Assembly: GCF_000027325.1 (NCBI RefSeq)
Contig: NC_000908.2
Coordinates: forward strand, 330,001-362,000
Length of the DNA stretch: 32,000 nucleotides
Direction: 5' to 3'
DNA from: Mycoplasmoides genitalium G37
Lineage (GTDB): Bacteria > Bacillota_I > Bacilli_A > Mycoplasmatales > Mycoplasmoidaceae
Shown: positions 8,367-13,860 of the stretch, one piece after another
Position numbering within the stretch: position 1 is the stretch's first letter
Layout of the letters: each line of letters begins with the position of its first letter
Notes under the pieces: generated by a model
Database searches by the model: none
The model's input: the letters and a program-made list of their open reading frames with translations, nothing else
Told to the model about the DNA's origin: nothing
Translations under genes and position numbers: made by a program

Positions 8367-10529
8367 ATGGCAACCATTCAGGAAATCGAGTGTGATTTTT
8401 TAGCTAAAATAGCACAAAAATTTACTAATGCAGAGATTGAATTAATTAACAAAGCATTCTATCACGCTAAAACTTGGCATGAAAACCAGAAACGGCTTAG
8501 CGGTGAACCTTTTTTTATCCATCCTTTAAGAACGGCATTATCACTAGTTGAATGGAACATGGATCCTATCACTATTTGTGCTGGTTTGTTACATGACATC
8601 ATTGAAGATACAGACCAAACCGAAGCTAATATAGCAATGATTTTTAGCAAAGAAATTGCTGAGCTTGTCACTAAGGTTACAAAGATTACCAATGAATCTA
8701 AAAAGCAACGTCATCTCAAAAATAAAAAGGAGAATCTTAACTTAAAAAGCTTTGTTAACATTGCAATCAATTCTCAACAAGAGATAAATGTAATGGTACT
8801 AAAACTAGCAGATCGACTTGATAACATCGCTTCCATTGAGTTTCTCCCCATTGAAAAGCAAAAGGTAATTGCAAAAGAAACTTTAGAACTTTATGCAAAG
8901 ATTGCTGGGAGGATTGGGATGTATCCTGTTAAAACAAAATTAGCAGATCTTTCATTTAAGGTGTTGGATTTAAAAAACTATGATAACACCCTGTCAAAGA
9001 TTAACAAGCAAAAGGTCTTTTATGACAATGAGTGGGATAACTTCAAACAACAATTAAAAAAAATCTTAGCGCAAAATCAGATAGAATACCAACTTGAAAG
9101 TCGGATTAAAGGCATTTACTCTACATATAAAAAACTAACTGTTCATGAACAGAACATCAGTAAGATCCATGATCTTTTTGCTATCCGCTTAATTACTAAA
9201 TCAGAACTTGATTGTTATCACATCCTTGGTTTAATTCACCTTAATTTTTTAATTGACAGTAAATACTTCAAAGACTATATTGCCTCACCTAAACAAAACC
9301 TTTACCAATCAATTCATACCACTGTTCGTTTAAAAGGGTTAAATGTTGAGATCCAAATTAGAACCCAACAGATGGACAATGTTAGTAAGTTTGGCTTAGC
9401 TAGTCACTGGATCTACAAAGAACAGAAAGAGGGATTGTTAGCACCTGCTTTGCAACTTAATTACCTAGTGACAAAACAAAAACACTCACATGATTTTCTA
9501 AAAAGGATTTTTGGGACTGATATTATCAAGATTAATGTTAGTGCTAGTCATGAACCTAATGTAATTAAGCAAATTAATGTTGATAGCAACAATAAACTCC
9601 TTGATATTGCTTTTGAAAACTATCCCAAGCAATTTGCTAAATTAACCAAAATTGAAATTGATGGGGTTGAGATCAATTCTTTTGATACTAGTGTTGAAAA
9701 TGAGATGCTGATTGAATTTTACTTTGGCAAGAATAACAATTTGAAATCAAAGTGAATTAGGTATATGAATAACCCTATATACCGTGAAAAGGTAAAAAAG
9801 AGCTTGGCTAAACTAGCTAAATCTGGTAGATACAGTGAGTTAGCTTTTTATGAAAAAGAACTGGGTGAAAAACAGTTAAAACTTGCTAGTGAAACTGAAA
9901 TCCAAAAACGCTTAAACACCCTAAGAATTAAAAAAATGAGTGATTACTTAGCGTTAATTGAGTGTACTAACTTTACTAATGATGAACATTTGTTGTTTCT
10001 AGCTAAAAACAACGACAAGTGAAATAAACTAACAAAACCACTTAAGTTTGCTTTTTCAAAAGTAGTTTTTCACAACTCTTACTTTGAACAAATTGAAGGT
10101 ATTTTTATCACCAAAATAGTGATTGAACCATGTTGTAGTAAGATCCCTGATATGCCTGAACAAGTAACTGGTATCTTAACTAAAAACATTTTAAGTGTTC
10201 ACCGTTATGGTTGTAAGAATTTACAAAATAAAAAGCAGTTAAAAATTATCCCGTTATATTGAAATATCCAGCAGTTAAAACTAAAACCACGTAAGTTTCG
10301 CAGTTACATTAACATTAACGGAGTGTGGAGTGAAAAAACCATTAATAAAATCTGTCAAACAATTATTAATGGTGATGGTTATATTGAAAAAATAATTCCC
10401 AAGATCAACAAACAAAAAGATGAATTTGATTTAAACATCACCCTTTTTGTTAATAACTACCAACAACTTCTCACCTTAATGGACCAAATTACCACTAAGA
10501 ATATCAGCTTTAGTTGAAAATACCTTTAG
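8367..10529 (+). CDS. relA: Bifunctional (p)ppGpp synthetase/hydrolase, RelA/SpoT (Rel) family, 720 aa
   Basis: Track ORFs 8367..9755, 9765..10022 and 10323..10517 are in the same frame and joined across TGA. Real TAG at 10527-10529. HD hydrolase motif LLHDIIEDT. Synthetase region GIYSTYKKL...DLFAIRLI...YQSIHTTV. Confidence 0.93.
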
Positions 10530-11182
10530 TTACCAAACACCGCATCATACACTTCTTCATCTCTTAAAAGTAAAACTAAGTGCTTTTTTAGTAGCCGTTG
10601 TGGATTGAAACGTGATACTCTCACTCCATAAACTTTCTTTGTAAATAAAATTAATAAAAAACCAGAAACAAAAAATGCCCCAATAATTGAGATTCCTGTA
10701 TAGAAAAGGATTTGGGAAACTTCAGTTAAATACCGCTTAAAATCATCATTTTGGTTTGGATTTGGGAACTTTTCTAGCATTTGATCAACAAAGCTAGTTA
10801 TGTTATTTAATGTGTGTTTAATTTGGGTAAAAGCAGCATTACTATCAAAGTTATTAATTTTTTTCAATGAACCTTCAAGTGCATTTAAAGAACTATCTAA
10901 TCCTGATGCAAATGAATTGTTTTGCGTTAATTTTCGCCCTTCGTTTAAAGATTTTTCAACTTCTGAAAGTGTTTTAACTAGGTTATTTTGGAAGATATTT
11001 TGGGAGATCTTTTTAATTTCAGTGTTATATTCACTAATCTTGTTATATCCCTCTTTATAGTAGTTGTTAATAGGTTCACGGTAAGTAAAAGCAAAATAAC
11101 CAGCAGTAGCAATTCCACCTAACAATAAAATCCCTACCAAAATAATAAGAAAAACTGCAAGTTTTTTTAATAGTCTAATCAT
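10526..11182 (-). CDS. Membrane protein with an N-terminal TM, a long helical/coiled-coil middle and a C-terminal TM, 218 aa (MG279 by recollection)
   Basis: Track ORF with ATG start and TAA stop. TM1 [27 protein letters not shown]2 [23 protein letters not shown], tail [12 protein letters not shown]. Paralogous architecture to the next gene. Confidence 0.85.
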
Positions 11183-11972
11183 GGTCTAATGCTGTTATCA
11201 CTTCCTCTTCCAAATCAGGATAACGATCTAAGATATCATTAACATGATCAGCTAACTGTTCAGTACTAATAAATCTTGAAAACCTGATCAATCCTCTTTT
11301 TTTAGAAGTTAAAAAGGAAAAGACAATGGTTGTAATCAAAATTGCTAACATCCCACCTGATACAGCAACAATGGTTATCATTGTGACATCATAATAATTA
11401 TTGAACTGTTCAGAAGAAGGGATGTTGTTTTTGATCTTTTCATAGCTACTAACAATGCTTTGTGCTTGTGTAGAAAACTCACTAACTGCACTAATTACAC
11501 CATCAGCTGTTGCTTGTTTTTTTACAGATGGAGATGAACTAGCAGTACCATTTTTATCAAGATTATTTTTAAAGTTGTCTAATTGTGTTTTACTGTTTTC
11601 CAAGTCTTTTTTGGTTGCATCAAGTTCCCTAATCTTTTCTTGACTAATATTACCTAGATTGTTCTGACTCTCTAAGTTCTTTTTGTATTCATCCACTTTT
11701 TGTAAAGATTGCTCTAAGTCTTTTTTAACTTGATCTAAATTGTTAGTAATGGAACTTTTGCTAAATTGGTTAGCACTATTTGCTAAAGCATTAGCAAAGG
11801 CTTTAGCAGAATTGAAAGAACTATCAATGGAATTACGAGCTTGAACATAAAGGTTAGCTGCTGTACTACGAAAATACAAAGCAGTAATACCAAACCCTAA
11901 CAGAAATACAAAAACCAACATTCCAAAGAAAAGCAAGATGGTTTTCGAAAACCGATTAATAAAAATAACCAT
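11175..11972 (-). CDS. Membrane protein, paralog of the downstream gene, 265 aa (MG280 by recollection)
   Basis: Track ORF with ATG start and TAG stop. It overlaps the start of the next gene by 8 nt. TM1 [23 protein letters not shown], coiled-coil middle, TM2 [23 protein letters not shown], tail [13 protein letters not shown]. Confidence 0.85.
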
Positions 11973-12032
11973 TTAAATACTTGTACTTTTAACCAAACTA
12001 ATGGTTATAAAAGTGTTTTGAAAACAAAACTA

Positions 12033-13703
12033 CTAGAGTTTAAGTTTAACACCCAATGCGTTGGTTTTAAGTTCTTTTGCTAGTGATTTAACTTCATTTG
12101 TATCACTGGAAACACCAGTAATATCAACTGTTTCAAACTTTTCTTCACCAATTACAGTAACCAACCCTTCAACTGCTTTAGTCATTCTTTCAAGACTACT
12201 ATCTGTATCATTTTCTAGTTTTTGGAACTGTACACTGTATTTACCACTAGCAGTAATTCTTTTGATGTTTTCATCAAATGTTACTCCGTTTTGTTCAGCA
12301 CGTTTTAAGATTTCATTTTGAAACTCGCTGTCTCTGCTTGCGCGTTCATTTTCATAGATGCTAGCACCAGGGTAATAGTTTTCATTAACCCTGTAATAGG
12401 TGTTATCTCCTTCTCTGTAAGCTTCTTCTAAGTGGAGGTTAAGTTCTTTTAAAGAACGGTACACCAAATCATCATCACTATCCTTGTTGGTATTAACATT
12501 CTTAACTAAGTACTTGTCAATGTATCCCCCAGCAAAATAACCTTGGAACTGTCTTTCAAACCTTCTGTAGTTGTAAATATCACCAACTGCTTGTTTGAGC
12601 TTATTAGCATCAATGGCTGAATTATCACTGTTTTGGAGTGTAACTTGGGTTAAATCAATGTGGGTAAATGGTTTTGAGGCAAACAGATCATAGATAACAT
12701 TAGTTTTACTTCCCAATACTAATGGGTTAAAACCAAAACTATTTGCTTTACTGGTGGAATAAAATTCCAACTCAACTACGTTTGCAAAGATTTGTTTAGC
12801 TACATTAACACCAGTGTAATCACCATAAAGTGAAACTTTTTTAACTGATTCTGGTAATTGCAATTCATTAAGTTGTGAACCATTACCACTTAAACCTCTA
12901 ATAATTAGGTAAGTAGGTTTTTCTGAATCTATTGTTGTTTTTAAAGCACTGATATCTTTAGCATCAATTGCGAGTGTTTTAACATCTTCAAAGAAGTGGT
13001 TTGGGTATGAGTCATAAAGTGGTGAACCTTTAGCAGCAAAATAAGTTCACTTATCATAAGTAAGGTTATTACTAGTTGAAACAGTTGTTGCTTTTGTGTT
13101 ACTCCATCCGCTGAAACTAGGAACTTGTCTAAACACATCATCATAACCACGGTTGTTTGCCATGAGAGTACCGTTAGTTGTTTGCAAGATTGGCATCAAC
13201 ACGCGGTTATTGAAATATTCAGTTGATTGGTAATAGCTAAGCAGTGAACCATCACTAGCAACATGATCATAATAACCAGCTTTAAAACTAGGAGTAATAA
13301 AGTTATCACCTGTTTTAATTAAGCCACTAATTTCAGTTTTAGGAACAGGACGGTCTAAACCCTTTGGACTGTTAGTGATCGCTTCTGATAACTCATTAGC
13401 AAAGTTTCTAAATTTCTCACGGAAGTTAGCACCACCAGATAAATCAATCTCACTCTGATAGCTACCATCGTTTAAAGAAAGTGATTTCAACTTTACTTCT
13501 GCACTAGGAGATTGTGTTGAGAACAACTTAAAACCGAGGTTACCACTCCTACCTGATGCAACCAAAGCATAACCACTTTGATTAACTAGGTTAGTGATCA
13601 TAACTGCTGAGAATGTGGTTAACGCTCCAGCACCTAAAACACCAATAGTCCAAAATAATTTACGCTTAAATTTCACACTATTTTTATGTTTTTTAAATTG
13701 CAT
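12033..13703 (-). CDS. Surface-anchored protein of 556 aa; by position and length the MG281 'Protein M' immunoglobulin-binding protein
   Basis: Track ORFs 12033..12863 and 13047..13703 are in the same frame and joined across TGA. ATG start, TAG stop. N-terminal anchor KLFWTIGVLGAGALTTFSAVMITNLV followed by a large ectodomain. The Protein M identity rests on synteny and my recollection of Grover et al. 2014, not on alignment. Confidence 0.8.
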
Positions 13704-13835
13704 TATTTTTTGTATTATTAGAAACTTTTAATTTGTAAACAGTAGTCTACTTATCAATTTTAAATTAAATCCACTAGTAAACTTCAATAACCCTTTCTCT
13801 GAAAGAGCTTGGTAATTTATTAAACAAATAAAAAA

Positions 13836-13860
13836 CACCCTTAAATTGCTTTAAGGATGT
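13836..13860 (-). terminator. Intrinsic terminator after the greA-tRNA transcription unit
   Basis: On the minus strand CCTTAAA-gcaa-TTTAAGG (plus-strand 13839-13856) is followed by gtgTTTTTTaTTTg. It lies 24 nt downstream of the tRNA-Gly 3' end. Confidence 0.65.

Follow-up and report, generated by a model that had tools for sequence, protein, structure and literature searches.

In this study, we showed that the tandem genes MG_279 and MG_280, located directly downstream of the gene for the immunoglobulin (Ig)-binding Protein M in Mycoplasmoides genitalium G37, encode diverged members of a small two-transmembrane (TM) protein family, and that the most conserved part of this family is the predicted cytoplasmic tail rather than the ectodomain. 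The window analysed was the stretch of 32,000 nucleotides at positions 330,001 to 362,000 (forward strand) of contig NC_000908.2, assembly GCF_000027325.1; open reading frames (ORFs) and translations were made under genetic code 4, and coordinates are window positions. The place of strongest conservation, the restriction of the family to about 50 clusters with no other domain, and a gene fusion which argues that the paralogues work side by side are new in this analysis. The pair itself, with its two-TM plan and tandem arrangement, is already curated knowledge under the NCBIfam family TIGR04527. The feature was thus known both as a family and as an operon, and the first-pass annotation of this DNA had correctly re-described a catalogued family. 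With a probability of about 60%, we read the two genes as diverged tandem paralogues that encode an autonomous pair of hairpin membrane proteins whose surface bundle is variable and whose TM/cytoplasmic core is constrained.

Conservation was analysed in an alignment of 23 members from related genomes and in 44 representatives (≤50% identity) from an exhaustive hidden Markov model (HMM) search. Across the 44 representatives, the tail had the highest conservation (2.23 bits/column) and the ectodomain the lowest (1.35). The top conserved positions of the tail were H243, Y251, P252, G228, R233 and K224, while those elsewhere were Y193 and Y194 immediately ahead of TM2, Y42 immediately behind TM1, and the TM1 glycines G17 and G28, which are near-invariant. 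The tail consensus was YK(K/N)VDGK.V.R...KK.L..H..KILKKYPEL. The tails of MG_279 and MG_280, which had been said to share a motif, indeed align together in the family alignment; MG_280 retains H...IL.RYP.L, and MG_279 and its M. pneumoniae orthologue lack the YP and lie on a very long branch. When compared with the M. pneumoniae-like genome G019, the ectodomain of MG_280 was 36% identical with indels, versus 72% for TM1 and 64% for the tail, and the corresponding values of MG_279 were 55%, 67% and 77%, respectively. A tail HMM matched no other ORF in this genome. Within the species (15 MG_280 and 9 MG_279 alleles), variation was not concentrated in the ectodomain, where 11/19 variable sites fell in 62% of the length; hence no signal of diversifying selection was seen within M. 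genitalium. These data suggest a division of labour between ectodomain and tail.

The plan of TM helix, heptad-rich helical ectodomain, second TM helix and short tail, as proposed before for both proteins, was reproduced by the hydropathy scan and the heptad statistics. K/R clusters precede TM1 and directly follow TM2, and the first 15 tail residues of both proteins contain four K/R and zero D/E. By the positive-inside rule, both termini are predicted to be cytoplasmic, with the helical domain on the cell surface. The ectodomains are rich in N, S and K and contain no Cys or Trp; measured between the 19-residue hydropathy cores they span 135 (MG_279) and 178 amino acids (MG_280). The heptad a/d hydrophobic contrast exceeded that of shuffled sequences (z = 3.9 and 4.8 for the two proteins), and in each protein this signal was split into three blocks of differing register. 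AlphaFold2 (AF2), run on 15-sequence alignments, gave low-confidence, all-helical models (pLDDT 57 and 49, pTM 0.29 and 0.26). In these models the ectodomains were broken into 3-4 helices of 20-52 residues each: MG_280 had four of about 30 residues (35-66, continuing from TM1; 72-102; 108-141; 156-183, leading into TM2), and MG_279 had one 52-residue helix and two shorter ones. A small beta-hairpin was placed directly past TM2 in both. The models suggest antiparallel bundles or hairpins instead of a single long stalk, which corrects the coiled-coil stalks proposed before.

The gene structure and the TIGR04527 membership were observed directly. BLASTP of MG_279 against MG_280 gave 30% identity over 114 amino acids (E = 2e-5), and both proteins passed the 125-bit cut-off of TIGR04527 (mycoplas_twoTM, 'MG_279/MG_280 family protein') with alignments spanning residues 1-216 of P0001 and 1-259 of P0002, so that their tandem paralogy was upheld. 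A six-frame TIGR04527 search of the whole genome (580,076 bp) found exactly two places, MG_279 and MG_280. The two-TM pattern, with one helix near each terminus, was present in 23/23 aligned members. MG_280 is the seed of Pfam PF23067 (MG280; threshold 27.4 bits), which it passes and which MG_279 fails at 19.3 bits, because the YP box has been lost from the MG_279 tail and the protein lies on its long branch. P0001 and P0002 were assigned to MG_279 and MG_280, and the upstream gene to MG_281 (Protein M), because identical copies of both proteins are present on dozens of M. genitalium contigs and TIGR04525 matches the upstream gene with 782 bits. The 8-nt overlap, the common strand with Protein M and the 60-nt spacer were all found by the ORF check as claimed. 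The start codon of MG_279 is placed within the last codons and stop of MG_280, and this overlap is likely a site of translational coupling. At the other end, the MG_279 stop shares 4 nt (10526-10529) with the stop of the convergent relA/spoT gene, and a terminator between them is absent. Protein M has a single N-terminal TM anchor (segment 22-40, hydropathy scan). The claim that no function is known for the pair also agreed with the literature searched for MG_279, MG_280, MPN399, TIGR04527 and PF23067, which gave no functional study, no main-text discussion of MG_279, MG_280 or MPN399 and no citation of the family accessions.

The size of the family was determined by an exhaustive HMM search over 1.84 billion representative proteins, since word-seeded searches with one protein or a profile had returned only 2-3 proteins. 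About 50 full-length clusters (215-370 amino acids) were obtained, none with an added domain apart from a self-fusion, and the further matches were long coiled-coil proteins and one ankyrin protein. The latter (P0079, ankyrin-repeat) was rejected as a relative, as its tail match arose by chance from the recurring string 'LTQKYPELKHQL'. Shorter entries in the MG_279 cluster (199, 79 and 64 amino acids) are alternative TTG start calls or fragments and are not firm evidence of gene loss. When counted at E ≤ 1e-8 over the 51 genera sampled in the order, the family was present in 3/51 genera (g1, 8/10 genomes; g12, 6/8; g13, 2/21), with 14 genomes above the cut-off and zero matches in the control genomes. 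Members were seen only in Mycoplasmoides, in Malacoplasma and, for a few genomes, in a third genus. The patchy occurrence in g13, which belongs to a second taxonomic family, could reflect transfer or loss; in both of its genomes, G184 (L058:7472-9568) and G156 (L059:7249-9353), the members lie 15-19 nt downstream of ffh (SRP54). A 248-amino-acid protein of genome G087 (L021:1456-2202; genus g2) with a TM helix, helical ectodomain, TM helix and short basic tail matched TIGR04527 below threshold (E = 1.4e-5), and may represent a very remote relative, from a genus with MIB-type M-domain genes.

Evidence for side-by-side action of the two paralogues came from the tandem pairs, which occur here, in G019 and in several genomes of Malacoplasma; several species carry a single copy. 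In every tandem pair, start and stop overlap or abut: the MG_279/MG_280-type junctions have an 8-nt overlap here, 1 nt in G019 and a 2-nt gap in G086 and G042. In the M. penetrans-like genome G012 (L035:9283-10911), the pair is fused into a 542-amino-acid, four-TM ORF under code 4, and the junction has neither a stop nor an ATG for the second half. The fusion is not a sequencing error, because it is kept in the clearly diverged library protein P0033 (530 amino acids). For such a fusion to fit the membrane, the first tail and the second N-terminus must lie on the same side, which agrees with both termini being inside. By Rosetta-stone logic, the fusion argues for side-by-side assembly, and MG_279 and MG_280 may form a hetero-oligomer. 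Separately, the uncultured Mycoplasma sp. G058 (L040:8232-12139, = L046:3890-7797) carries four copies in tandem that were duplicated recently, and every copy has a separate spacer of 200-320 nt.

Co-transcription with Protein M, which the first-pass annotation had offered as a possibility, is backed by published maps of the sister species M. pneumoniae, and for M. genitalium it is probable from the terminator-free spacer and the common strand. In M. pneumoniae, one transcription start site (TSS), 482114, is common to MPN400, MPN399 and MPN398 and maps 117 nt upstream of the mpn400 start, and transcription termination sites (TTS) are listed at 480050, roughly 200 nt beyond the mpn400 stop, and at 478450 (Lluch-Senar et al. 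2015, PMC4332154, Table S2); the TTS of the unit lies about 220 nt inside the relA orthologue. RNA levels form a staircase (log2 CPKM 8.3-9.1 for MPN400, 7.0-7.7 for MPN399 and 5.8-6.6 for MPN398; PMC4559472, Table S11), and the three genes were termed an operon by Ruiz et al. (bioRxiv 10.1101/647750). All three proteins were detected by mass spectrometry (MS) in published data from cell extracts, with MS areas about 10-fold higher for MPN400 than for MPN398 and MPN399, the latter two being alike; size-exclusion chromatography (SEC)-MS placed all three in fractions >600 kDa together with many unrelated proteins. In published essentiality data, MPN400 was classed as fitness (F) and MPN398 and MPN399 as non-essential (NE), as were MG_279, MG_280 and MG_281. 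The common TSS, the expression and the non-essentiality were therefore shown in the sister species.

In the window, the Protein M gene is probably the first of a transcription unit with MG_280 and MG_279. The terminator scan found no convincing intrinsic terminator in the 60-nt spacer, whose fold (z = -1.55) has only a 6-bp A/U stem, and which aligned partially with the G019 spacer. A candidate -10 region of the three-gene unit is TTTAATAAAT, which the G019 alignment shows as conserved and whose position matches the 117-nt leader mapped in M. pneumoniae. A TATAAC / TATTAAC element at 11990-12005 (-), partly conserved with the G019 spacer (L032), could be a weak internal promoter; M. pneumoniae has no TSS assigned there.

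Table 1. Coordinates of the genes, junctions, predicted protein segments and signals of the MG_279/MG_280 locus (window positions).
Feature	Position	Strand	Description and basis
MG_279-type gene (P0001)	10526..11182	(-)	218 aa; ORF and translation; TIGR04527 230.8 bits
MG_279 TM1	aa 8-30, nt 11093-11161	(-)	hydropathy scan
MG_279 ectodomain	aa 31-154, nt 10721-11092	(-)	124 aa; between TM segments
MG_279 TM2	aa 155-180, nt 10643-10720	(-)	hydropathy scan
MG_279 cytoplasmic tail (predicted)	aa 181-218, nt 10529-10642	(-)	charge bias
MG_279/MG_280 overlap ATGATTAG	11175..11182	(-)	8 nt; read from sequence
MG_280-type gene (P0002)	11175..11972	(-)	265 aa; ORF and translation; TIGR04527 273.6 bits, PF23067 452 bits
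MG_280 TM1	aa 10-32, nt 11877-11945	(-)	hydropathy scan
MG_280 ectodomain	aa 33-196, nt 11385-11876	(-)	164 aa; between TM segments
MG_280 TM2	aa 197-220, nt 11313-11384	(-)	hydropathy scan
MG_280 cytoplasmic tail (predicted)	aa 221-265, nt 11178-11312	(-)	charge bias
Protein M-MG_280 spacer	11973..12032	(-)	60 nt, Protein M stop to MG_280 start
Protein M gene (MG_281 type)	12033..13703	(-)	556 aa; TIGR04525 782 bits; PF20757, PF22805 and PF22806 also match
Candidate -10 box TTTAATAAAT (TTTAATA)	13815..13824	(-)	conserved in G019 alignment; about 110 nt upstream of Protein M ATG
tRNA-cluster terminator	13835-13860		directly precedes the TTTAATAAAT box; terminator scan

The adjacency to Protein M was judged in family-level and order-level genome samples, in which G000 is this genome. 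The family adjoins an M-domain gene only in G000 and in G019. In ten genomes (G030, G007, G012, G050, G047, G039, G024, G078, G184 and G156) the nearest M-domain gene lies 35-430 kb away, and in seven of those ten the Protein M orthologues have no two-TM neighbour. The near-complete genomes G055 (95% complete), G071 (92%) and G033 (96%) carry an M-domain gene and no family member, even with a broader profile. A related-loci search with the closer alignment set gave 5 named loci. No conserved partner gene was found in the family neighbourhoods, which differ by lineage: the gallisepticum-like group has azoreductase-/RarA-like genes, Malacoplasma has large surface proteins and an ATP-binding cassette (ABC) ATPase, M. 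testudinis has F5/8-type-C proteins, and g13 has ffh. The Protein M operon link is thus an arrangement of the genitalium/pneumoniae lineage and not a conserved module, and the three-protein surface module put forward in the first-pass annotation was not backed when co-occurrence was followed across related genomes. The genomes compared are kin and not independent of one another; their comparison makes a functional link less likely.

These data bear on the proposal that MG_279 and MG_280 serve Protein M as dedicated accessory subunits, which would pack on its TM anchor to space, cluster or stabilise it in one Ig-evasion module. The same strand, the terminator-free 60-nt spacer, the single TSS and operon call of the M. 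pneumoniae orthologues and the glycine-rich TM helices of Protein M (GVLGAGA) and of both hairpin proteins (G17, G28) speak for it, as does the occurrence of both families in nearly the same genera. Also in its favour, the published mpn400::Tn4001 mutant was uncomplemented and the downstream genes were unmentioned (PMC7176901), so that polar effects on mpn399/398 may have contributed to its mild cytotoxicity defect. However, we consider such a dedicated role unlikely, because the genes are adjacent only in the genitalium/pneumoniae lineage, orthologues elsewhere have unrelated neighbours, and M-domain genes persist without the family in three near-complete genomes. The roughly 10-fold difference of the MS areas and the different essentiality classes (F versus NE) also argue against it, and the strongest constraint lies on the cytoplasmic tail of the family, yet Protein M is almost without a cytoplasmic part. 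Moreover, recombinant Protein M alone reportedly binds Ig, a finding attributed to Grover et al. 2014.

A sensory role was weighed on structural grounds. Each protein might be a minimal TM receptor of the chemoreceptor or NarX/NarQ type that relays an outside ligand signal to the conserved tail, given that the AF2 helices of MG_280 run from TM1 through four helices to TM2 around a 164-amino-acid ectodomain, that the tail is the most conserved part, and that the weak Foldseek matches include NarQ sensor-TM fragments (query TM-score (TMq) 0.31-0.36, root-mean-square deviation 7-8 Å) and chemoreceptors. We regard this as very unlikely. No Pfam 4HB_MCP, TarH or HAMP match was obtained even at E ≤ 1, and the Foldseek search of these low-confidence models against the PDB gave no match below E = 0.03 and no TM-score above 0.36 (best NarQ, E = 1.1, TMq 0.36). 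The PDB profile search, with 928 matches at E ≤ 1, returned generic coiled coils (designed bundles, HA2, chemoreceptors, EzrA) that were rejected as compositional. No known output domain is present in the tail, which has no second occurrence in the genome, and the low conservation of the ectodomain would be unusual for a site that binds a specific ligand. A second structural proposal, which counts both among the alpha-helical proteins of the ClyA/HlyE/AhlC type that form pores or damage membranes, is close to refuted: the weak Pfam HlyE match of MG_279 (E = 0.024, 14.4 bits) is below the cut-off of 25, and AhlC, ClyA and XaxA are low-ranked Foldseek matches with TM-scores of 0.18-0.25 at E > 0.1 (ClyA/AhlC 0.19-0.25, E ≥ 0.17). 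In addition, the hydrophobic helices at both termini with positive-inside flanks indicate a resident membrane protein rather than a secreted toxin, and the proteins were detected in cell extracts. All of the weak matches, in Pfam to HlyE, LMBR1, BAR, tetraspanin and the N-terminal region of RNase Y and in PADLOC to JetC, LmuB and DruC, were sub-threshold and fell in the helical region, and no sensor, HAMP, toxin or defence-system family scored above threshold.

The autonomous hairpin pair is the reading that we prefer, and its working parts can be sketched as follows. Each protein would be a membrane helical hairpin with both ends in the cytoplasm, exposing a fast-evolving, antiparallel helical bundle of 125-165 residues at the cell surface. 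Four elements would make up its conserved core: TM1, in which two glycines are near-invariant, a collar of aromatic residues at the outer face of the membrane, TM2, and the tail of roughly 40 residues on the cytoplasmic side. Expression would occur by read-through from the Protein M promoter, with MG_279 translationally coupled to MG_280 and both at levels well below Protein M; such expression from the end of the Protein M transcript would be confined to the genitalium/pneumoniae lineage. The paralogues would most likely stand side by side as a hetero-oligomer, whose variable ectodomains form the host-exposed face and whose TM/tail core contacts a partner or the inner leaflet. Both genes are dispensable in culture. 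Several observations weigh against this picture. The hetero-oligomer is derived from a gene fusion of another lineage; the tree, with deep nodes of 70/84, does not show the duplications in Malacoplasma and of MG_279/MG_280 to be one event; and a hetero-pair cannot be obligatory, because several species are single-copy. The family and the M-domain genes occupy almost the same few genera (both in g1 and g12, M-domain genes also in g2), and because gene order in mycoplasmas is highly rearranged, a functional link to Protein M may exist despite the lost synteny. Finally, the bundle geometry is tentative, because the AF2 models are of low confidence.

M. genitalium and M. pneumoniae are reference minimal cells, so each gene without a function is a gap in whole-cell models, and this pair is expressed, conserved and located behind Protein M, an Ig-blocking virulence factor and biotechnology reagent. 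Should the pair modulate the display of Protein M, this would bear on immune evasion and on the reading of the mpn400 transposon mutant. The lineage-specific link and the cytoplasmic constraint point to the TM/tail core and the contact between MG_279 and MG_280, and away from a Protein M complex. A further-reaching and quite unlikely idea is a minimal two-subunit TM device, in which the variable bundle of hetero-paired hairpins engages a host ligand or the Protein M anchor and the invariant basic tail (YK.VDG...H...ILKKYPE) relays or anchors this inside the cell, recruited into the Protein M operon for antibody evasion in two human pathogens. To our knowledge, these bacteria lack two-component and chemotaxis signalling. 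If true, the device would be a receptor- or adaptor-like system in such bacteria.

Among known systems, the chemoreceptor and NarX/NarQ sensor modules are the nearest architectural analogue, and an analogue only: the order of elements (TM1, four-helix bundle, TM2) and the ectodomain size are similar, whereas MG_279 and MG_280 have no sequence-family match, no HAMP, no kinase/MCP output domain and no significant fold match. With the Ig-blocking MIB-MIP and Protein M systems they share a surface location, fast evolution and, here, probable co-transcription with an M-domain protein; unlike MIB, whose partner protease MIP is conserved next to it, the MG_279/MG_280 family is not conserved beside M-domain genes and has no enzymatic domain. 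MPN398/MPN399/MPN400 (IbpM) of M. pneumoniae is the orthologous unit in the same order and strand (identity 59%, 46% and 56%, respectively), and differs by its 1-nt overlap, compared with 8 nt here, and by the MPN399 ectodomain, which is 22 residues longer and contains indels. From TIGR04527, a family without assigned function, there is no difference, as MG_279 and MG_280 are its name-giving members and have the same two-TM architecture, tandem layout and restriction to mycoplasmas.

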